DNA of 64,000 bases from Chloroflexota bacterium (GTDB taxonomy: Bacteria; Chloroflexota; UBA11872), in assembly GCA_026708035.1 (NCBI GenBank), contig JAPOVQ010000013.1, positions 9,372 to 73,371 on the forward strand, in the 5' to 3' direction. Below the pieces are notes generated by a model. That model was given only the letters and a program-made list of their open reading frames with translations. It had not been told where the DNA came from and did no database searches. Position 1 is the first letter of the stretch. The number at the start of each line of letters is the position of its first letter. Shown piece after piece: positions 7,600-50,090 of the stretch. The position numbers and the translations under genes are program-made.

Positions 7600-8280
7600 A
7601 TGGGCACAATATCCGTGAACCGACTAGCGGGTCTGTCCCTCATATTCGGCCCGATAATCGCCTTCGTCTTCTTTCTCGTAGAGCCGGGCGGGCTACTGAT
7701 AGACAGCGCCCCCGTGTCGGACGCCGTCGGCTCCATCACGGCCAAAGGTGACAACGCCGCGCTGACCAATGTCACGAACATCGGAATCATTCTTGGCCTG
7801 GCCCTCATCCTCTCCGGCCTCTACGCGCTCATGCGGAACGTGACCTTGCAGGGCAACGGCAAGGCGCTGGTTCAGATGGGCTTTTTCATGATGTTCGTCG
7901 GACTGACCGGTTGGATCCTGTCCGGCGGCATGGACTTCATTCTGGCCGATGCTCAAACCAGCGACCAGATCAGCGGAAGCGTTCCCGTCTACTACGCCGG
8001 CTCCGCCCTCGTCTACGCCGGCGGGATTGCCCTTGGATTCGGCGGCTTCATTTTCGCGTTGGGCCTTTCCACGCGCGACGACCACAGCCGGATAGTCTCG
8101 CTGCTGGCTGCCCTTGTCAGCCTGGCCATCATGGTCTTCTTCGCGGTAGCCATACTCAGCAACGAGGGCCGCGACACCTTCATCTCGCTGGCCCGGAGCC
8201 TCTACGTCCTGCTGGTGATCTGGTATGGATACCTGGGCTTCGGACTGATGCGGCGACCCGATCCCCTCCTGTGGCAGTAG
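7600..8280 (+). CDS. Integral membrane protein of unknown function.
   Basis: Track ORF 7507..8280 trimmed to MGTISVNRLAG, which has an aggggag RBS-like sequence ~8 nt upstream. There are multiple hydrophobic helices. The upstream ~300 bp is lower in GC and noncoding. Confidence 0.5.
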   Translation: MGTISVNRLAGLSLIFGPIIAFVFFLVEPGGLLIDSAPVSDAVGSITAKGDNAALTNVTNIGIILGLALILSGLYALMRNVTLQGNGKALVQMGFFMMFVGLTGWILSGGMDFILADAQTSDQISGSVPVYYAGSALVYAGGIALGFGGFIFALGLSTRDDHSRIVSLLAALVSLAIMVFFAVAILSNEGRDTFISLARSLYVLLVIWYGYLGFGLMRRPDPLLWQ

Positions 8281-8465
8281 CCTCAATCTAGGGCTTGCCC
8301 GCGGCCGTCCGACGGTCGACGGGCGGTGGCGGCGCACGAGCCGCTGCTAGCGCGAGTCTGCGCCTGGACAACTCCGGCGGCTCGGGTCTGGAGCGTGCCT
8401 ATGTGAAGAGGCTGTGACGCAAACCGGGTGACGACGCCAGCAACCGAATATTCAGCTTCGCCGAG

Positions 8466-9683
8466 TTACGCGTCGGCCTGTTCCCACTCGTCGCTCAGCA
8501 CGCGGTAGAACACGACATCGACCCGCGAACGGCCGGTGCCGGGAGCCTTGTAGTGGTCTCGGGCCAGACCTTCGCACTGCATACCCAGCTTCTCCATCAC
8601 CCGCCGGGACTGCCGATGCTCGGCGTCGGTTCGGGCCCAGATCTTGGCCAGGCCACGCCGTCGAAACCCCCAGTCGATCACGGCGCCGGCGGCCTCCGGC
8701 ATGAGGCCCTTGCCCCAGTTCGACTTCGCCAAGGCGTAGTGCAGCTCGCCGGTCTCGTGCCTTGCGTCGATGCTGAGGGTGATGATCCCGACGCAGGCGC
8801 CGTCCAGCACGATGGCCCAGGAGGGCCTGGTGTCCGGCGAATCGAGCAAATGACGCGCAACCACCTCCTCGGCGTCTCGGCGTGTGTACGGCCGCGGCGC
8901 CTCGTCCAGCAGATGCCTGGCCCACTCGGGGTCGCTGGTGAACGCAAACACGCCGTCTACGTCGCCTGGTTCCAATGGCCGCAGCAGCAGCCGGCGGGTG
9001 GTCAACTCGCGGAGCTCGCCACGGTCGGTTGAGTCGTACTCGTCGATCGGTGCGGGGATTGGAGGCAGAGGCTCGACGAGCCTGCTCCACTCGTCCCGCA
9101 GCACGGAGTAGTAGGCCGCATCGACCCGTGTTCCGCCCATCACTTCGCTCCGAAGCGTTCCGTCGCGGGCCATTCCCAGCTTTTTCATCACTCGCAGCGA
9201 GCGCGTGTTGCGCGCGTCGGCGGCCGCGTAGATCTTCGCGAGCCCGTACTGGCGGAAGCCCCAATCGCAGACGGCAGCCGTCGCCTCGGTCGCGATGCCC
9301 CGTCCCCACATATCTCTGGCCACGTCGTAGCCCAACTCGGCCGTTTGGTCCTCGGAATCGACGTCGAGGCTGACCACGCCAATGACGCGATCTTTCAGGA
9401 CGATGGCGAACCTGGCGCCCTTGTCCCATGACGCCAGCACGGCCTGCGCCACCATGTGCTCGGCGGCGCCCCGCTCGTACGGACGCGAATAGAACTCGGC
9501 CCACTCGGGATCGCTGCCGTATCTGAGCACGTCGTCGATATCCGACAGCCTGAACGGCCGCAAGAGCAGTCGCTCAGTTGTCAGATCCGTGGGATTGGTC
9601 ACTGATGGTCCCTTTGCCAACGCTGCGGCAATGGTGCCGGTCCACCCCGCAACGCTACTACGGGCGGACCACGCCACCGACAC
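8466..9683 (-). CDS. Tandem-domain GNAT N-acetyltransferase (two RimJ/RimL-like halves).
   Basis: Internal duplication: LLLRPFRLSDIDDVLRYGSDPEWAEFYSRPY... and LLLRPLEPGDVDGVFAFTSDPEWARHLLDEAPRPY..., each followed by a WAIV/WAIVL...G.IG...D core typical of Acetyltransf_3. Confidence 0.65.
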   Translation of the reverse strand: MSVAWSARSSVAGWTGTIAAALAKGPSVTNPTDLTTERLLLRPFRLSDIDDVLRYGSDPEWAEFYSRPYERGAAEHMVAQAVLASWDKGARFAIVLKDRVIGVVSLDVDSEDQTAELGYDVARDMWGRGIATEATAAVCDWGFRQYGLAKIYAAADARNTRSLRVMKKLGMARDGTLRSEVMGGTRVDAAYYSVLRDEWSRLVEPLPPIPAPIDEYDSTDRGELRELTTRRLLLRPLEPGDVDGVFAFTSDPEWARHLLDEAPRPYTRRDAEEVVARHLLDSPDTRPSWAIVLDGACVGIITLSIDARHETGELHYALAKSNWGKGLMPEAAGAVIDWGFRRRGLAKIWARTDAEHRQSRRVMEKLGMQCEGLARDHYKAPGTGRSRVDVVFYRVLSDEWEQADA

Positions 9684-9918: not shown

Positions 9919-10617
9919 CTAGACCGCCTCCCCGTTCGTGATCCGGCCGTCCAGCATCTCGACGATCCGGCCGCAGGCCTCGCCGACGCGGGGATCGTGG
10001 GTGACCATCAGGATCGTCTGCTGGCGCTCGGTGTTGAACCGGCGCAGCAGGTCCAGGACCTCGTTCGTGCTCTCCGAGTCGAGGTTCCCCGTCGGCTCGT
10101 CGGCCAGCATCAGGTCGGGCTGGGTCACCAGCGCCCGGGCGACGGCGACGCGCTGCTGCTGGCCGCCCGAGAGCTCCGTCGGCCGGTGGTCGGCCCGATC
10201 CGCGAGCCCAACCCAGTCCAGCGCCTCCGCCGCCGCTTTCATGGCCTCGGACCGGCGGCGGCCCGCATATTCGGCCGGCAGCGCCACGTTTTCGATGGCC
10301 GTCAGCGTGGGCACCAGGTTGAACGCCTGGAAAACGAAACCCATCCGTTCCGCCCGCATCTTGGTGCGCTCGCGGTCCGACAGGTCGGCCACGTCCGTGC
10401 CGCCGATCACCAGGCTGGCCGGCGGGTCCGAGTCGTCGGGCGAGTGCAGCAGGCCCAGGATGTGCATCAGGGTGCTCTTGCCGCAGCCCGAAGGACCCAT
10501 AATCCCCACCATCTCCCCGGCCTCGATGGAAATGTCGGCGCCGCGCAGCGCGAGCACGTGATTCTGTCGGCCGAGCCGATAGGTCTTATGCAGGTGGCGG
10601 GCCTCGAGGAATGCCAT
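9919..10617 (-). CDS. ABC transporter ATP-binding protein (MacB/LolD/FtsE-like).
   Basis: Walker A GPSGCGKST, signature LSGGQQQRVAVARAL, Walker B LMLADEPTGNLD. Confidence 0.85.
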   Translation of the reverse strand: MAFLEARHLHKTYRLGRQNHVLALRGADISIEAGEMVGIMGPSGCGKSTLMHILGLLHSPDDSDPPASLVIGGTDVADLSDRERTKMRAERMGFVFQAFNLVPTLTAIENVALPAEYAGRRRSEAMKAAAEALDWVGLADRADHRPTELSGGQQQRVAVARALVTQPDLMLADEPTGNLDSESTNEVLDLLRRFNTERQQTILMVTHDPRVGEACGRIVEMLDGRITNGEAV

Positions 10618-10624
10618 GCGCGCC

Positions 10625-11812
10625 TTACTCGTACCTGAGCGCCTGGACCGGATCGAGCCGGGCGGCGTTCCAGGCCGGCAGCAGTCCGGCCACCGCGCCG
10701 AGCACGGTGGCGAATGCCAGCGCCACCACCGCGGTCGGCGCCGTTAGTTGGAACAGGATGTTTCCTGAATCGCGTCCAAGCTCGTTCGCCACGCTTACCA
10801 CGATGGCGCCGAGCCCCAGTCCCAGCAGGCCGCCGAGCAGGCCGATGCTGGCGGCCTCGATCACGATCTCGCGCATGATCCGTCCGCGGGTGGCCCCGAT
10901 CGCTCGCTTGATGCCGATCTCGCGCGTCCGCTCCGCCACGCTCATGGCCATGGTGTTGATCACCGACAGGCCGCCCACGACCAGGCTGATGAGGCCGATG
11001 CCGATGACGATGGCGTTGAAGATCTCCGTCGCCGAGGTGATCTCCTGGTCGAAGTCCGTCCCTGTCAGCGTGCCCACTTGCGCCACGCTGGCCTCGATGG
11101 CGTCGGCCAGGTCTTCCGTGTCCACACCCGCTTCCGGATAGACGGTCGCCTGGGAAATCAATTGGTCGGCTCCCAGGCCGGCCGTGGCCAGAATGGGCGC
11201 GTCGGCGGCGAGCAGCGCCTGGGCCGCCTGGAGCGGGACGAAAGCGAAGGTGTCAGGGCCGGTCAGGGTCGGCTCGAGAACGCCGATGACGTCGAATTGC
11301 ACCCGACGCAGTTCGATGGAGTCGCCGGCGCGCTTGCCGAACTTCCGGGCGAGATCGGCGCCCAGGACCACCACGTTCGCTCCTTCGTCGTCCGGCGTCG
11401 TCAGCCGCCCTTGGGCCGCCCGGACCTGCAACGCTTCACGCCCCTGGTCGGCGTCCGCGACGGCGCCGACGATGAAGTCCGGCAGACCGAAGCCCCCGCC
11501 CCCCGCCTCGTTCGGATCGAGCAGCAGCTGGACTTCGGGAACCACGACCGCTACCCCGGGAACGTTGGCAATCTGGTCGGCCACGCTGAGCGGCATTGGG
11601 GTGGACCCGAGGCCAAACGCGGGATTCGTGGCATCGCTGACGATGATCTTGTCCTGGTAGTAGGTCGAACCGCCGTCGACGATGAAGCTGATTCGGTTCG
11701 CCATCGAACTCATCACGACCAGCACCCAAATCCCGATCGTGATGCCGACGACGGTTAGCGCCGTACGGAATCTCCGGCGGGCCAGGTTGCGCAGAATTCG
11801 GATGACGTACAT
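10625..11812 (-). CDS. ABC transporter permease, FtsX/MacB-type.
   Basis: Track ORF 10625..11890 trimmed to MYVIRILRNLARRRFRTALTVVGITIGIWVLVV. A large periplasmic loop is followed by C-terminal TM helices (FtsX-like). Adjacent to, and co-oriented with, the ATPase. Confidence 0.75.
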   Translation of the reverse strand: MYVIRILRNLARRRFRTALTVVGITIGIWVLVVMSSMANRISFIVDGGSTYYQDKIIVSDATNPAFGLGSTPMPLSVADQIANVPGVAVVVPEVQLLLDPNEAGGGGFGLPDFIVGAVADADQGREALQVRAAQGRLTTPDDEGANVVVLGADLARKFGKRAGDSIELRRVQFDVIGVLEPTLTGPDTFAFVPLQAAQALLAADAPILATAGLGADQLISQATVYPEAGVDTEDLADAIEASVAQVGTLTGTDFDQEITSATEIFNAIVIGIGLISLVVGGLSVINTMAMSVAERTREIGIKRAIGATRGRIMREIVIEAASIGLLGGLLGLGLGAIVVSVANELGRDSGNILFQLTAPTAVVALAFATVLGAVAGLLPAWNAARLDPVQALRYE

Positions 11813-11924
11813 CAGGTGCGTGCTCGGCAAACGGGTCAGGCGGCAGCCAGGCGGAACGGTACCGCACGGACCGGCCTTGAGATGTAGCAACGGTCACAAA
11901 CGATGCCGCCCCCCCGCTGTCTCT

Positions 11925-12140
11925 CGGCGCCCGACGCCCTCACCCTTGAGGAGACCCTTGCCTAGTCCCTCCAGTACAGATTTGAGGGCAGGTCGGGTCC
12001 CCTCTCCCTTGATGGGAGAGGGCTAGGGTGAGGGTGATTCGCGGCTTGGGAATGGGATGTCGACCATTCATTCAAAGGTCTCCTCGAGGGAGAGGGTTGG
12101 GGTGAGGGGGTCCCCTGGCACTCCCGCACCGTTTGTCGCC
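11925..12140. repeat. Cluster of palindromic intergenic repeats (module B: CCCCTCACCC..GGGAGAGGG).
   Basis: ggtcccctctcccttgatgggagagggctagggtgaggg and gagggagagggttggggtgagggggtcccc. The same module recurs at ~13085-13215, 25150-25300 and 49915-50055. Confidence 0.7.
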
Positions 12141-12148
12141 CCGCGCCC

Positions 12149-12718
12149 TCAGCTCCCGTCCAGCGTCCCCTCCACCTCGAGAATCGCGTCGAGAATCGTG
12201 CTGAGCGACGGACGGTCGCCAATGTTCGTACCCACCTGGCGCCAATGCACCACGCGCCACTTCCCGATCAGCAGCACCGCCGGCGCGGCCACATCGTCCT
12301 TTAGCAGATTGAATACGCCGAAGCTCTCGGCCACCGCGTGATCAGGGTCGGCGAGGATCGGGTATTCGGCGCGCACGTACCGGGCCATATCCGCGGCTCC
12401 CTCGACATCGTCCGTGCTGATGGCGACCGGTCGATACCCCACCTCGGCGAAGAGGGGAATGGCTCCCTGCAGCTCCACGAGCTGCGCGCGGCAGATTCCT
12501 CAGAAGAAGCCCCGGTAGAACACCAGGATGACGCCTTGACCGTCCTCAACCAGGCCCGAGAGCGTCACCGCGTTCCCGTGCGCGTCCTGCACGGTGAAGT
12601 CCGGCGCGATCTCCGCGCCCTCCGGCGGACCCTCCTCGCCGCACGCCAATAGCAAGCTGCCGACCAGCGCGACGGCGGCCAAAACGACCAAGGATTTCAT
12701 GCGGCAAGGATACGGCAC
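12149..12718 (-). CDS. Thioredoxin-fold redoxin (AhpC/TSA_2 / PRXL2-like thiol-disulfide oxidoreductase) lipoprotein, interrupted by an in-frame TGA at 12500..12502 within a UxxC motif. Candidate selenoprotein; alternatively a nonsense pseudogene.
   Basis: Track ORFs 12500..12718 and 12149..12478 are in the same frame (12502-12478=24). Read-through gives MKSLVVLAAVALVGSLLLAC(lipobox)...GQGVILVFYRGFF-[TGA]-GICRAQLVELQGAIPLFAEVGYRPVAISTDDVEGAADMARYV... The R-G-F-x-[C/U]-x-x-C-R block resembles the redox motif of AhpC/TSA_2-type proteins. Confidence 0.5.
12463..12490 (-). promoter_or_regulatory. Candidate bacterial SECIS-like hairpin ~12 nt downstream of the in-frame UGA.
   Basis: The mRNA reads UGA-GGAAUCUGCCGC-GCAGCUC-GUG-GAGCUGC-AGGG. 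The arms GCAGCUC/GAGCUGC are a perfect 7-bp stem (or 6 bp with a CGUGG loop containing G/U). Coordinates are +/-2 nt. Confidence 0.3.
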
Positions 12719-12769: not shown

Positions 12770-13260
12770 CTTCCGCGCCCCCCTCTGTCATTCCGGCGAC
12801 GCCTGTCCCCGCGCAGGCGGGGAGCCGGAATCCAAGTCCGGTCAATCCTGCCCGGTGGCCCAGGCTGCGGGCAGCCTGGGAGATACAACCACGGCCAGTC
12901 CCACGTCGCACGCTGTGCGGGCCACCGAGACGCCAACCCAAAGAACCTCGTCGGCCCCACCGTCATTCCGAGAGCAGCGAGGAATCCAGGACGTTCGTCC
13001 ACGGCCGCCGGAAGTGACGCGTCACCCCTCCGTCATTCCCGCGTAGGCGGGAATCTACCCCGAGTTGATCCCCGAGCCGGAATCCCACGTCCGGCTCCCT
13101 CTCCCCACCGTGGGAGAGGGTTGGGGTGAGGGGGCCGCGCTGACTCGTCATTCTGGCGAAGGCCCGAATCCAGTCCGGCTCCCGCTCCCACGGGGAGAGG
13201 GTCGGGGTGAGGGGGACCGTCACCGACCGTTTGCGGCGGCACTTATCACCCGCCGCTATA
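12770..13260. repeat. Dense array of palindromic repeats (modules A, B and C).
   Basis: Module A (GTCATTCC..GGAATCCAG) occurs four times: gtcattccggcgacgcctgtccccgcgcaggcggggagccggaatccaag, cgtcattccgagagcagcgaggaatccagg, ccgtcattcccgcgtaggcgggaatc, cgtcattctggcgaaggcccgaatccag. They are interleaved with module B (ctctccccaccgtgggagagggttggggtgaggggg; ctcccgctcccacggggagagggtcggggtgaggggg) and a partial module C (ggcccaggctgcgggcagcctgggag). Confidence 0.75.
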
Positions 13261-14610: not shown

Positions 14611-17600
14611 CTAAGCCTCGGCGGCGAGCCATGTGTATACGTGATACGGCTGGCGCGTGATGGTGAAAACGTCGAACGCCTGAACTCTCGCGGCGGGGTG
14701 CGCGGTTAGAGCTGCTGCTGCCGCCTCGTGTTGTTGCCGAGTGTAGTGCGCTGGATCACGCCGCCATAGCGGATGGCCAACGACCGCGATTCGTTCTCCA
14801 TCGGGTGCAACGATCCCTGGCAGCAGCCCAAACTTCTCAAGACGGAGGCCAGGTAACGCGTCTTGGAAACCGCCAACGAACGCGCGTGTCTGCTTGTCGG
14901 CCAGTTGCGCCCACCGATCGAAAGAGGGCGCCTTGCCCAGCGCGGCCTCGGTCAGATCGAGCGCGAGACGCCAGTCGAGCCAACCGTGAAGCTGCCGATT
15001 GTCGTAGCTGCGCAGGCAGTCCGGGCAAGCGGCGTCGCAGGTCTCTGCGTGTGCTGGGTCTTCAAACGTCACGCCAATCTCACGGCGCATCACGTGTAAG
15101 ACTCGCCGCATTGACTCGGGTCGCGCGAGGAAGGCTGCGTATCCTGCCCCATTCTCGAGGCGGTCCGCGACGAAGGCGCGCGCGGTCAACCCACGACTGC
15201 CTCGCCTCGGCTGCAGCCCGATCTGAAGCTCTCTGGAATCTACGTCTAGCTCAGACGCGCAAGCGCGGCGTAGCAACTCCGCGAACGACCACAGCGCCGC
15301 TATTCCACCGGGCATCGCGTCGTTGTCGCGGGGGACGAACCCGCCGGGAATCGGAAGCTCGGAGCGATCAAACGCTACAACCAAAGCGTCGGTGCGCTTC
15401 ACGTAGCCGATGGCGCCCTCGTCATCTGGAGTATTCTCTGGCTCTGGAAAAGGCGAATCTCGCCCGTACAGATCAGGCTGCGGGACTATGACCTCACGTC
15501 CATCTTGGTACATCTCGAATCTTTCGCCGTTGTTGTCGTTCACGACAAAGACGTCAGCCTGTGGATATCGAGTAACGGTGACCATGCCAACCGCAAATGA
15601 TTCGTCATCCTCAGATGTGATTCCTAGCTGCGGCGAAGGCAGTAGTGGACCGCGCTCGGTGTAGTCGTCATAGTCCCTCGGGGCGTACGTCGTGCGGAAT
15701 CCACGAGGCTGGAAAAGTTTGAACCGATTTATGTCGTCGCCATTGCAGACGACGCAACTTCCTTGGTGCTCTCCCTCAACATCCTCAACAATTGACTCGC
15801 AATTGGCACATTGGGCAATTCGCAGGGGCGTACCCAGCGGATTGATGGGGTATGGACTCTGCCCCTGAAACCCCCACGCAGCGAACCCCGCGCAGACATG
15901 TATCTCCTTGTCTCGGAGAACCTCTGCGCCGGGTGCGAAGTCCGAGATCGCCATTTCGAGATCGCGCTGAGCAACAATGGCGCGATCTTGCTCCCGCAGA
16001 CTGCGCGGCTGGTCGCGGTAGAGATCGCGTGAGCGCGTGGGGAATCCAAACATCGGCAGCACGCCGGCCGAGGCCAGACGCTCGCTCAACTCCTGCTGCG
16101 TGTAATTCGGGTTATCGATCGCGGCATCGATCGCACGCACTAGATCCGTACGCAGCCACGGCGCAAGCTGATTCCGCTCGCCGGGGTCTAGTCCAGTGAA
16201 CGCCGTAATCCCCTCGACGATAGAGTCAATCTCATGGGAGTCGCGCAACCACGCCGCGACGGAGGCGCGGTAGGCGGACTTCCAGCCGTCCACACGCCCA
16301 AAGGCGCCGTGAATGCTGTCCCGGCCGGTTCGCGGACGCTCATGCGGCGGCAGATTCCGAAACGCCCGACGCAGGCACTCCGTGGCCACCACGCGGCGGC
16401 TGATTTGGGGCTGCCGCAGGTCCAGGTAGGGATACGGAGGCGGCAGGCCTGCCATGCGCTTCGGGTGGTTGAAATGGAAGTCGTCGTGCGCGCGGTCGCG
16501 GCACAGCGTCAGCGCGTAGGCGAACGGCTGGCCAGTCCGGCCGGCCCGCCCAACGCGCTGCTGGTAGTTGAAGCGCTCGGGCGGCATGTTGGCCATGAGC
16601 ACCGACTCTAGCGACCCAATGTCGACACCCACTTCCATCGTGGTCGTCACGCTCAGCGCGTCGATGCCATGGGTCAGCGGGTTCTCACGCGGTGGATCGA
16701 GACGCGCTCCTTTGAACCACCGCTGCCGCTGGCGCTGAACCGCCAGCGGACGAGTCTGCCCGGTTAACTCCTCGACCCGGAGCCGGCGTGGGCGATCATT
16801 GCGGGCCAGCCAGCCGTAGTAGTCGTCGAATCCATGCTCTCCAGGCCTGTCTTGCAGGCTCGTCGAGAGACAGGCGCCATTCGTACACACGCCGGCACTG
16901 GCGTGCAGGTGGGCGCGGGCGCACGTCCGGCATTCCCAAACGGGCGCGTCCGGCCGCGTGCGCACGACTGCGAACGGGGCGTTCAGGTCGTCCAGTGGCA
17001 AGCGCCAGTGCGCATCGACAACACCTGCGGTTCGCAAGCCTGTCTTGACAGCCTCCCAAAGGTCATTCGCCTCGACGCCGTGCGCGTCGGCAATGGCTGA
17101 TACGTAGTCCTGCAGCACTCTTGGTGCGTTCGGCGAAGGCGGCCAACGGGATCCTGGGCGCCGCCCGGCCAGTCCACAAATGCGAATCGCGCCGAGGACC
17201 AACTGTTCCGCATACTCGCCGCGCAACGGGATATCTGAAATGGGAATTGTGGTCGGCGCGAGATACCCGAGGCGCGCGGATTCCAAGTCGCGGCTCGCCC
17301 TGCCAAACAGGACGTCGGCGGCGTGAACTGCAAGGCGCTCGAGGTGTTCATCGTTGGCCCGCCCACGCAACTCCTGGGAGTCGATTGGCTCCCATTCAAC
17401 TTGCGGCGGGTCGTGGATTCGCCACCACGGCTGGCGGTTCCATTCCTGCACCGAGGCGCCGGGACCCGCCGGGTTCACGCCAAGGCGTACCAGGCGATCT
17501 TGCAAGGCCAGCAATAGGTCACCCCAGGCGCGGCCCGACGGCCGTGCCTGCTCCCGCGCTTCAAACTCGCCAATCAGGCGCTCGTGTTCAGGATCGGCCA

Positions 17601-20073
17601 CACCGCGAGCGCGCAGGAGATAGGCCACCCAAACTTCTTGGTGCAGCCGTTGCAGGCGGCCTGCGACTGTGGCCTCGGACGAGGCAAGCGACTTGCCGTC
17701 TGCTGCTCGCCGCAGGATCTCCGCAGGGGAGGCAAACTCCGCCAACTCCGTGCATATGAGTTGACGCACGAGGTCGCGGAAGTGGTTCAACTCCAGTCCC
17801 GCAGCCGTGGCTGCGGCATCCGCACGGCTGTCTGTAAAGACGATCGTTCGCGACGGTTCGTCTTCGGAACCCAAGCTGGCGAGCAAGCGGTCCGTGATGA
17901 TCTGGCCAGTAACCGCGACCCGGGTCGTGTGCGCTCGGACCGGCGAGCGGACGACGCCGCGGAAGAACAGCCGAGGGTCACGATTCCATCCTCTCGATTG
18001 ACAATGGGGGCAAGATTCGGGCAGTGCTGGTGCCCGATGCTTGCCGCTGCGGGATTGCGACGGAACGTTGAACATTGTTCCTGTTGCGCTCCCGACGGCG
18101 CGTGGCTGGAGCAGCCCCGTACGGTGACTGTACGCGGCAGGCACGAAACTGAACGTGGCAGAACTCGTCGCCCCAGGCGGCGTATGCGTCCAGTCTTTGA
18201 TGTGCTGTGCACCGCGCCGCGGCCAATACCACATGTAGTCGCCCCACTTACGCCGGTGCACTGGCGCAACATCCCACTCGGCGAGCTCGGTCGGTCCCGG
18301 ACCGAGGTACCAACACAGCTCGTTGTTCCCCACAGCAGGCGGCCGGACCGCAAACCCGCCCAGGAAAGTCTCGCCACACTGATCGCAGCAAAGGAGTTCA
18401 AGCACCCGGCTTCCGCAGGCGCACGTATGGGTTGGTCGCGCAAACAGCTTTCCGATGCGGCGGTCGGGCGAGCGCCAGCGATCGTCAACCGCCGGGCACT
18501 CGGGGTTGCTGCACGCCCAGAGCCCACGAATCGTCCGCACAAACATGTGCGCGCGGAAGGTCGGCTCGCCCCGCCGTGCCTTGTCCCTTGCGACGGCGGC
18601 GAGCACGGCGTCCAGCGCTTGGTCTTTTTCAGCCGTTGCCGGCGCATCGAATAAACGCTCGTCGACCTCGACTCGCGTAGTTGGCTGCGGTGCGCCCGAT
18701 TCGTCAAGGCACGCGCTGGCCAGTGCGGCGCGAAGGTCGTCGCGCTCAAGCGCCTGCCGTAGGCGCAGGTCGGTCGCAAGCGAAGCATCCGCGTGATCAA
18801 GCTCGCCGTAGGTCGCCCGAGAAAGCGGCTGATTCGGTCTGATCTCGCTTGGCTTGCCAGGAATGATCGCAAACGTCTCGCGCGGTACGCCGAAGAACTG
18901 TTCGAGAAACCCGCGCCCCGCATTGTCTTGAGCCAGGGACGCGCTTGTCGCGACGCAGCGCAACTGCGGTGAATTGGGAGCGAGCCCCAGGCGACGCAAC
19001 ATGTTCCGGATGACTAGCGCCACTTCGCTGCCTTGCGTGCCTCGGTAGAGATGCAGCTCGTCAACCACTAACGTGAACGTGTGATCGACGCTCTGGGCGA
19101 GCCAGGCTGCGGTCTGCTCGAATAGCGGTTCCTCGCGGTGGCGCATGAGCATGACGTTGAGCATGGAGAAGTTCGTGACTAGGATGTCTGGCGGATCCGC
19201 CACCATGTCCCACCGCGTGAGCAACTCCCCTTCGCGGGGATCGGGAAACTGAACGCGAGTCGAGCGGTCAAGCTGGACAATAGAGTCACATTCATGTTCC
19301 ATTGAGCGAAGCGCTTCCGCCGCCTCGCGAACGCTTGGATGACTGTTCAGCCTTGGACGGTCGCCAGCGCCGAGCGTCACGCCGGTGTACCGGCCAAAGT
19401 AGAGGCGCCGTGAACCCTCGTCCCGCAGGCGCGATACGGCTGACCGCAAGCGCGAAATCTGATCCTCAACCAGCGCGTTGGTTGGATACAGGATCATGGC
19501 CCGCATGGCCGCTGGTCGCTCCGCGCTCGACCTAACGCTCCGCCACCTACCGCCGCTTTCCCGCCACCAGCGATGTTCGTCACGGTCGTTGGGCCACGCG
19601 CGCGACTCCGCTAGCAGCCGGGCGAAGATGGGAAGTAGGAAGCACTCAGTCTTGCCGGAGCCGGTACCCGAAGTGACGGCGGCGTTGCGTTGTGACGCAC
19701 CATCCCGTAGCAGCGTGGACAGCGCCTGGACTTGATGCTCGCGCAAACGGAAGTGCCCGTCCTCACTAAACAGCGCAGCGCCAAGGAGATCGGCGGTCTC
19801 GCGATCAGTGCCTATCGAAGCGCAAGCATCGAAGATGGAAGTGGTGGATGGGTAGGACAGGACAGGCTCGATGAGCGGATCGGTGAACACCGTGCCAGGG
19901 CGCTCCAAGAGCTCGCGCCGCTCGTGCAGCATCGCGTCGTCTCGCAGCCAGAGCGCCGTGTCGTAGTAGCGCAGGTAGCTGTCGCGGATGTCCTGATAAA
20001 GCGCGGCGGGCCCGCCGCGGCTGCGCATCGCGTTGGTCAAATCGCGACTCCATTCGACTGCAGGCGAGTCCAC
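14611..20073 (-). CDS. Giant (1820 aa) DEXH-box helicase with a central Zn-ribbon and a C-terminal DUF1998/MrfA-like Cys cluster. DruE-like (Druantia) defense helicase.
   Basis: Motif [17 protein letters not shown], motif [19 protein letters not shown], internal [20 protein letters not shown], helicase-C motifs [39 protein letters not shown], and C-terminal [31 protein letters not shown]. Its start overlaps the upstream gene by 37 nt. Confidence 0.65.
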
Positions 20074-25084: not shown

Positions 25085-25310
25085 TATCGCTCATGCCGCT
25101 GTCCGCGCATCGTCCGGCCGGGTAGGGGGGCTTCGCGAACCGCCCTCCTCTCCCTCGATGGGCGAAGGTCGTCCGGCCCCCTCTCCCGGGGGGAGAGGGT
25201 TGGGGTGAGGGGACGCCCGTGTTCGCGCTCTCGGAAACCGCTGCAGCCGCGACCCGACTCCCGTCCCTCGATAGGAGAGGGCTGAAGCGAGGGTGATCCG
25301 GCACACAACC
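25085..25310. repeat. Intergenic palindromic repeats (module B, two copies) between the tandem paralogs.
   Basis: ccccctctcccggggggagagggttggggtgaggggacgcc and cgtccctcgataggagagggctgaagcgagggtgatcc. Confidence 0.65.
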
Positions 25311-49794: not shown

Positions 49795-50090
49795 AGGGCC
49801 GCCCCTGCAGGAACGGCCCCTTCGGTGTAGGGGCAGCCCTAGTGGCTGCCCTGCCCGGAGGCCCAGGCTGCGCGCCCGGTGGCCCACGCTGCGTGCAGCC
49901 TGGGAGACTCACACGCAGCCGGTCCGGTCCCCTCTCCCGCGGGGAGAGGGACAGGGTGAGGGGACGGCCGCTCCCGCGCTGCGTGCAGCCTGGGAGACTC
50001 ACACGCAGCGAGTCCGGTCCCCTCTCCCGCGGGGAGAGGGACAGGGTGAGGGGACGGCCGCTCCAACGCTGCGCGCAGCGCGGGCCACCG
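49795..50090. repeat. Repeat cluster with a tandem duplication of an ~85-bp unit (module C half plus module B).
   Basis: Two consecutive copies of ctgcgtgcagcctgggagactcacacgcagc[c/g]gg/agtccggtcccctctcccgcggggagagggacagggtgaggggacggccgctcc, preceded by cccggaggcccaggctgcgcgcccggtggcccacg and followed by aacgctgcgcgcagcgcgggcc. Confidence 0.8.

Follow-up and report, generated by a model that had tools for sequence, protein, structure and literature searches.

The closest described relatives of the protein analyzed here are predicted selenoproteins with a peroxiredoxin-like domain. Zhang & Gladyshev (2008) listed 225 sequences in their GOS analysis of ocean metagenomes as 'Prx-like 1, pfam00578, UxxC' (PMC2398784), and reviews include a 'Prx-like thiol:disulfide oxidoreductase' (PF00578, UxxC or UxxU) as a high-confidence predicted family (PMC9312934, PMC13188914); the two designations are equivalent. 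The protein that we studied is encoded in a 64-kb stretch of Chloroflexota DNA (64,000 nucleotides, hereafter the window) and shares with Prx-like 1 the Pfam domain, the UxxC position and the predicted selenocysteine (Sec). It was 34% identical over 177 residues (E 2e-36) to JCVI_READ_852987, a '#Prx-like 1' member of the GOS set that reads ...LTILSCSS...VIIVFYRGYFUGICRAQLGEL...VFNVLGDGVAAPAAFIVGK..., and the two have in common the FYRG(F/Y)F-U-GIC-RAQLxEL motif, the VAAPA motif and a lipoprotein signal. With a PF00578 domain, a UxxC Sec and homology to a listed member, the window protein belongs to Prx-like 1, and since an F-U-GIC member is present in the GOS set, its kind was known and its subfamily had already been detected. 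The part of the GOS supplement covered here contained 67 Prx-like 1 reads of the W-U-PYC type as against one of the F-U-GIC type, and as far as this material extends, no earlier work had set the F-U-GIC lipoprotein subfamily apart, placed it in Chloroflexota/SAR202 or built a curated model for it. A literature search found no paper linking selenoproteins with SAR202.

The original prediction, which was made from the sequence alone, placed two minus-strand ORFs (12500..12718 and 12149..12478) in a common frame with one TGA between them, and we found them exactly as listed, with the single TGA at 12502..12500. Reading through from the ATG at 12700, which is likely the start codon rather than the GTG at 12718, gave a complete CDS (12149..12700, minus strand) of 183 codons that encodes MKSLVVLAAVALVGSLLLAC...VILVFYRGFF-U-GICRAQLVELQG..., with Sec as residue 67. 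The part following MKSLVVLAAVALVGSLLLAC opens GEEGPP, and the frame after the TGA runs GICRAQLVELQGAIPLF... to the stop codon, TGA, at 12151..12149. The in-frame TGA (12500..12502, minus strand) thus corresponds to a predicted Sec67 in the first position of a UxxC motif (U-G-I-C), and the second redox residue of the motif is Cys70 (TGC, 12491..12493, minus strand), which aligns with the peroxidatic Cys of peroxiredoxins. The placement of the TGA at the first Cys of a CxxC motif was borne out by a full-length Cys homolog, P0015, which reads FYRGFFCGICRGQLVELQ with a TGT codon at this position. We conclude that the two adjacent ORFs are one real gene for a membrane-anchored peroxiredoxin-like redox protein, in which the TGA almost certainly encodes selenocysteine. 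The fuller reading, to which we assign a probability of about 0.88, is that of a single functional gene encoding an extracytoplasmic, lipid-anchored oxidoreductase of the peroxiredoxin fold that contains selenocysteine, and hence a predicted selenoprotein.

Related loci were collected by scanning one genome per GTDB species with the peptide patterns LVFYRGFF and GICR[AG]QLVE, so that the disputed codon was left out of the search. The scan found 111 loci, of which 80, from 80 species-level genomes, were kept. These span four phyla: Chloroflexota (including Dehalococcoidia/SAR202), Gemmatimonadaceae, Latescibacterota and Nitrospinota. The window's own clade is represented by eight Chloroflexota species (L001-L008) with 79-94% identity, and the orthologs in these species align across residues 1-183.

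The claim that read-through yields a single lipoprotein of the thioredoxin fold held on both counts. The first 20 residues, MKSLVVLAAVALVGSLLLAC (12641..12700, minus strand), form a lipoprotein signal peptide with the lipobox LLAC, in which Cys20 is the predicted lipidated residue; the segment VGSLLLAC fits the PS51257-type lipobox pattern of predicted lipoproteins. A lipobox was found in 72 of the 81 family members and the remainder had a TM or signal anchor, indicating that the family as a whole is tethered outside the cytoplasmic membrane. Judging from the lipobox, the window product would be exported, lipidated at Cys20 and then held on the outer face of that membrane. When Cys was put in place of the stop, Pfam AhpC-TSA (PF00578) matched residues 31-153 as one domain running across the TGA (E 1.3e-23, 83.7 bits), and Redoxin (PF08534) matched the read-through protein as well. 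On the other hand, the affiliation with AhpC-TSA_2/PRXL2 that had also been proposed was not recovered, since PF13911 gave no Pfam match at E <= 0.01 and AhpC-TSA and Redoxin were the only families found. No NCBIfam model reached its cutoff for this protein; the best match, NF040769 ('SelL-related redox protein'), covered the motif region with 52.4 bits as against a cutoff of 120 bits, and the window protein is therefore not a member of it. The AlphaFold model of P0015, which is 55% identical, had a pLDDT of 96 and showed a single peroxiredoxin fold that superposed on Bcp4 and AhpE with a TM of 0.9 and an rmsd of 1.8-1.9 A. The first Cys of this model, at the Sec position, lies directly before the long active-site helix.

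The fold modeled for P0015 is that of AhpE and of the BCP/PrxQ-type 1-Cys and atypical 2-Cys peroxiredoxins, and the best sequence match in the PDB was M. tuberculosis AhpE (Rv2238c; E 4e-10), followed by Bcp-type peroxiredoxins and ResA. The alignments pair FFPLAF-T-GIC-Q of AhpE with FYRGFF-U-GIC-R, so that the peroxidatic Cys45 of AhpE falls on Cys70, which is retained in an invariant column. The remaining positions differ: the catalytic Thr of peroxiredoxins (PxxxTxxC) is replaced by Sec67, their Pro by Arg63 and their distal Arg by Pro140. Where a peroxiredoxin has P-x-x-x-T-x-x-C and a distal Arg, this protein has R-x-x-x-U-x-x-C and a Pro, and the Thr and Arg that activate peroxide are absent. 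Checked against the canonical peroxiredoxin pattern (PxxxTxxC plus Arg), the protein thus retained the Cys alone. It is a peroxiredoxin scaffold with a thioredoxin-style UxxC centre rather than a canonical peroxiredoxin. It resembles ResA, TlpA and StoA in having a domain of the thioredoxin superfamily tethered outside the membrane and an xCxxC-type dithiol at a helix N-terminus; it differs from them in its scaffold, which is of the peroxiredoxin type and not of the TlpA/ResA insert type, and in having Sec as the nucleophile, and its sequence matches to ResA were weak (34-58 bits, far below the family cutoffs).

Since the Pro, Thr and Arg of peroxiredoxins are all replaced, a thioredoxin-like thiol/selenol-disulfide oxidoreductase is favored over a classical peroxidase, and the protein is probably an extracytoplasmic enzyme of the former kind. 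According to the alignment and the model of the Cys homolog, the redox centre U67-G-I-C70 lies where the first long helix begins, at its N-terminus. Sec67 would be an exposed nucleophile that attacks an oxidized substrate, which may be a disulfide of a protein or of a low-molecular-weight compound, a sulfenate or a peroxide. Cys70 would resolve the intermediate as a Sec67-Cys70 selenenylsulfide, and a membrane electron-transfer partner may re-reduce the centre. A rival reading is that the protein is a selenoprotein but works as a peroxidase and not as a protein-disulfide oxidoreductase, with the Sec67 selenolate directly reducing H2O2 or organic hydroperoxides as in GPx and Cys70 as the resolving residue. 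Selenols react rapidly with peroxides and do so without activation by Thr and Arg, and the fold is nearest to AhpE and Bcp. Against this, three of the four active-site residues of peroxiredoxins are replaced, a UxxC at a helix N-terminus is the arrangement of thioredoxin, TlpA and ResA (the last being among the sequence matches), and the gene in SAR202 lies in a CopC-CopD-cytochrome c cluster and in no oxidative-stress cluster. We consider peroxidase function a real but less likely alternative.

Downstream of the TGA, the mRNA can form the hairpin GCAGCUC-GUG-GAGCUGC (12469..12485, minus strand), with a 7 bp stem and a GUG triloop, within the A-Q-L-V-E-L-Q codons. The sequence of this hairpin and its SECIS-like position were as originally predicted, while its start, given earlier as about 12 nt from the UGA, was measured at 14 nt. 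When the hairpin region was folded alone, its stability was not above that of shuffles of this 66% G+C sequence (z = -0.25). The hairpin of a single sequence is thus not significant by itself, and its significance rests on comparative data. Across 81 sequences the register of the hairpin was fixed, with standard pairs in 94.4% of cells, while sliding the 3' arm by 1-3 nt left only 15-41% paired. The covariation score was 0.269, compared with 0.128 +/- 0.012 for shuffles, none of which (0/500) reached the observed value, and it exceeded that of all the register slides too. The closing pair 24-40 was GC in 39 and CG in 23 of the 81 sequences, and the internal pair 27-37 was GC in 47, AU in 24 and GU in 5, a switch that couples synonymous CAG/CAA (Gln) codons with CUG/UUG (Leu) codons. 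The loop was GUN or GGN, with G in first position in all but one of 79 distinct sequences (the exception being UUG).

The published consensus for bacterial SECIS (bSECIS) elements consists of a loop of 3-9 nt with G in its first two positions, a stem of 4-16 bp, a distance of 16-37 nt from UGA to loop and an MFE <= -7.5 kcal/mol (PMC13188914). The window hairpin lies within these limits (3 nt GUG loop, 7 bp stem, spacing of 21 nt, MFE of -10.1 kcal/mol), so that it both agrees with the consensus and covaries. With only 17 nt folded, 56 of the 81 family hairpins passed all four criteria and the other 25 missed that of -7.5 kcal/mol. The hairpin overlaps the conserved codons Q-L-V-E-L, and its conservation is therefore partly at the protein level. 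A search of Rfam, at gathering thresholds and at E <= 10, gave no match to a SECIS-type family, which we take to mean that Rfam has no model capturing this bacterial SECIS hairpin. On the sequence data, the hairpin looks like a bacterial SECIS-like element. A ribosome meeting UGA67 would have this hairpin 14 nt downstream as its bacterial SECIS, and the element would recruit SelB-GTP-Sec-tRNA(Sec), leading to insertion of Sec in place of termination.

Searches for the decoding machinery were carried out by tblastn with E. coli SelA, SelB and SelD sequences, which served as probes only. Neither the 64-kb window nor the flanks (20 kb) of its eight closest relatives, L001-L008, gave a match to selA, selB or selD. 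Both lacked tRNA-Sec as well, the tRNAs of the window being tRNA-Lys and tRNA-Arg only. By tblastn, L041 and L027 each had a SelB homolog less than 10 kb away from the redoxin ortholog. The SelB of L041, 5 kb from the ortholog, passed the SelB equivalog model TIGR00475 with 330 bits against a cutoff of 242, and a database search with it returned, among the 120 nearest SAR202 matches listed, four that lie putatively on L020, L043, L045 and L049, and none that was assignable to the window's clade. One SelB locus (P0132, locus L083) is on contig ctg717532c (ENA ERZ21830300, also in NCBI), which at 3,500,881 bp is exactly as long as OY762634.1 of L020 and is on that basis taken to be the same chromosome. 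About 5 kb from this SelB, L083 encodes a SelD (16989-18000, minus strand) whose UxxK active site contains an in-frame stop (IRLTELASCAG*ASKF) and which the gene caller truncated to 295 aa; from its sequence, this is a predicted Sec-containing selenophosphate synthetase. The family thus co-occurs with Sec machinery in the genomes checked (L041, L027 and L083), all of which are outside the window's own genome.

We also weighed whether the UGA could be decoded without selenium. Either near-cognate read-through (with Trp, Cys or Arg) would occur, or translation would stop and begin anew at the GTG at 12478, a start codon 7 codons past the TGA that gene callers use, and yield two polypeptides. In favor of this reading are the presence of the GTG and the fact that the evidence for Sec machinery comes from other genomes. 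Two polypeptides would break the single peroxiredoxin fold after strand beta3, ahead of the active-site helix, and would not be foldable. A UGA aligned with the redox Cys, together with a covarying hairpin with a G-first triloop at the canonical distance, is a signature of Sec, and SelB and SelD co-occur with the family elsewhere. Decoding without selenium is therefore quite improbable.

The TGA was present at exactly the same codon in 80/80 kept loci (of the 111 found), at protein identities of 36-94%, and all 80 had a Cys three residues after it; Cys70 was conserved in all 81 family sequences. Within the window's clade, where dS was 0.16-0.76, dN/dS by the Nei-Gojobori method was 0-0.33 upstream of the TGA (47 codons) and 0.07-0.30 downstream of it (110 codons). 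As dS between the kept loci was 0.2-0.7, these do not represent one contaminating sequence. The window copy had no lesion besides the TGA, which answers the question of other inactivating damage raised with the original prediction, and both halves of the gene are under purifying selection. That prediction had also named a nonsense pseudogene as the alternative, in which a TGC/TGT->TGA change in a Cys-type redoxin gene would have left the two ORFs as decaying remnants, and although gene callers do split the locus into 66-aa and 109-aa ORFs and the copy of one relative (P0016) is frameshifted, this is excluded because the TGA is conserved across four phyla and dN/dS stays far under 1 in both halves of a gene that is otherwise intact in the window. 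Sequencing error, chance and a recoded genome were likewise rejected, given the conservation of the TGA, the dN/dS on its two sides and its use as an ordinary stop: the G+C content of the window is 66%, and many of its high-GC3 genes end normally at a TGA, indicating that the genome is not recoded.

We scanned the 64-kb window for TGA codons that have sequence of coding-type GC3 both before and after them. Apart from this site, nothing but one ordinary gene junction was returned, so the scan gave no further selenoprotein genes near the target. In the flanks of L001-L008, the same scan gave two sites, a junction between toxin-antitoxin genes and a TGA in a recombinase gene. The latter (L008, 15245-15247, minus strand) is flanked by coding-type sequence in a recombinase-like ORF (...YLLSGILR-TGA-ESCGRAMS...), at a position where a zinc-ribbon Cys is expected, and probably arose by nonsense mutation of a gene in a mobile element.

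A search of protein databases gave 14 close homologs (78-99% identity), all of which had been called as fragments following the TGA, of 109-112 residues (one of 131), as well as one N-terminal fragment ending ...VFYRGFF. The single full-length Cys form in this search was P0015, which reads ...VVLVFYRGFFCGICRGQLVELQ... and carries the motif FYRGFFCGICR, with TGT at the Sec position of its DNA. This sole Cys form of the subfamily found, at locus L081 (452-898, JGI metagenome 3300048637), retains a SECIS-like hairpin, G-CAGCUC-GUG-GAGUUG-C. Retention of the hairpin is a caveat to the SECIS assignment, though in this single case it is consistent with a recent conversion of Sec to Cys.

The surroundings of the gene were compared among the loci. 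The order in the window's clade was an enolase-superfamily sugar-acid dehydratase gene (divergent), the redoxin gene, an FtsX/MacB-type permease gene and an ABC ATPase gene in 6/8 species, and in the other 2/8 a GNAT gene took the place of the transporter, indicating that the link between redoxin and transporter is not obligate. In the window itself, a MacB/LolCDE-like ABC exporter (FtsX-family permease plus ATPase; 9919-11890, minus strand) lies directly downstream of the selenoprotein gene. We also noted a REP-like intergenic repeat, a hairpin CCCTCTCCC-N5-6-GGGAGAGGG followed by TTGGGGTGAGGG, with 7 copies in the window as against 0.01 expected by chance (11994-12113, 13092-13218, 25191-25211 and 49942-50052); four of the copies flank the selenoprotein gene, on both sides.

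A different neighborhood was found in SAR202/Dehalococcoidia, where a CopC-CopD-cytochrome c fusion (769 aa) directly follows the Sec-redoxin gene in 13-15 genomes. The cluster comprises five genes, which encode, in this order, a 337-aa protein, a His-rich 634-aa protein, the Sec-redoxin, the CopC-CopD-cytochrome c fusion and a 607-aa membrane protein; it lies at 7669-14300 in L041, with equivalents in L015, L017, L019-L021, L023, L024, L030, L034, L037, L043 and L049. Conservation of this cluster suggests a function related to copper or cytochromes in SAR202/Dehalococcoidia. One speculative and rather unlikely extension is that the F-U-GIC subfamily is an obligately Sec-dependent, lipid-anchored extracytoplasmic reductase with which marine Chloroflexota handle copper or mature their cytochromes; if true, it could be a functional counterpart of TlpA/Sco-type reductases that uses selenium, and would link the selenium and copper economies of these bacteria. 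The partner may differ in the sponge-associated clade of the window, where the gene has moved beside the MacB/FtsX-type ABC exporter.

Two further arrangements were observed among the Dehalococcoidia loci. About 14 of these carry a second, tandem Sec paralog 1.2 kb upstream, a lipoprotein with a Pro/Thr-rich linker of ~250 residues and a FYRGFW-U-PYC-R Prx-like domain, and a similar hairpin is present at the same distance from its UGA. This paralog occurs in L052 (about 8100-9400, TGA at 9003-9005) and also in L036, L051, L055, L060, L070, L071 and L073-L077. At L058 (10136-12433), the redoxin sequence following the TGA runs in frame into a family-5 solute-binding domain (SBP_bac_5), which reflects either a fusion or a lost stop codon.

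Neither the understanding of Sec decoding nor the set of selenoprotein classes is changed by this gene. To the earlier description of Prx-like 1, the present analysis adds that the subfamily occurs in Chloroflexota and three other phyla and uses Sec almost universally, that its SECIS covaries, that the family has a lipoprotein character, that Sec maps onto the Thr position of peroxiredoxins, and that current pipelines still split the gene. In ENA/NCBI, dozens of MAGs from Chloroflexota, Gemmatimonadota, Latescibacterota and Nitrospinota have it wrongly annotated as two ORFs, one of 66 aa and the other, 'AhpC/TSA', of 109 aa. It is covered by no curated NCBIfam model, and one that includes the Sec position would put the annotation of many genomes right. 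Nearly all of the subfamily is of the Sec form (80/80 kept genomes, with one metagenomic Cys form), which argues that the selenol is functionally required. As judged from this predicted selenoprotein, sponge-associated and marine Chloroflexota would rely on selenium for a redox function in the cell envelope.
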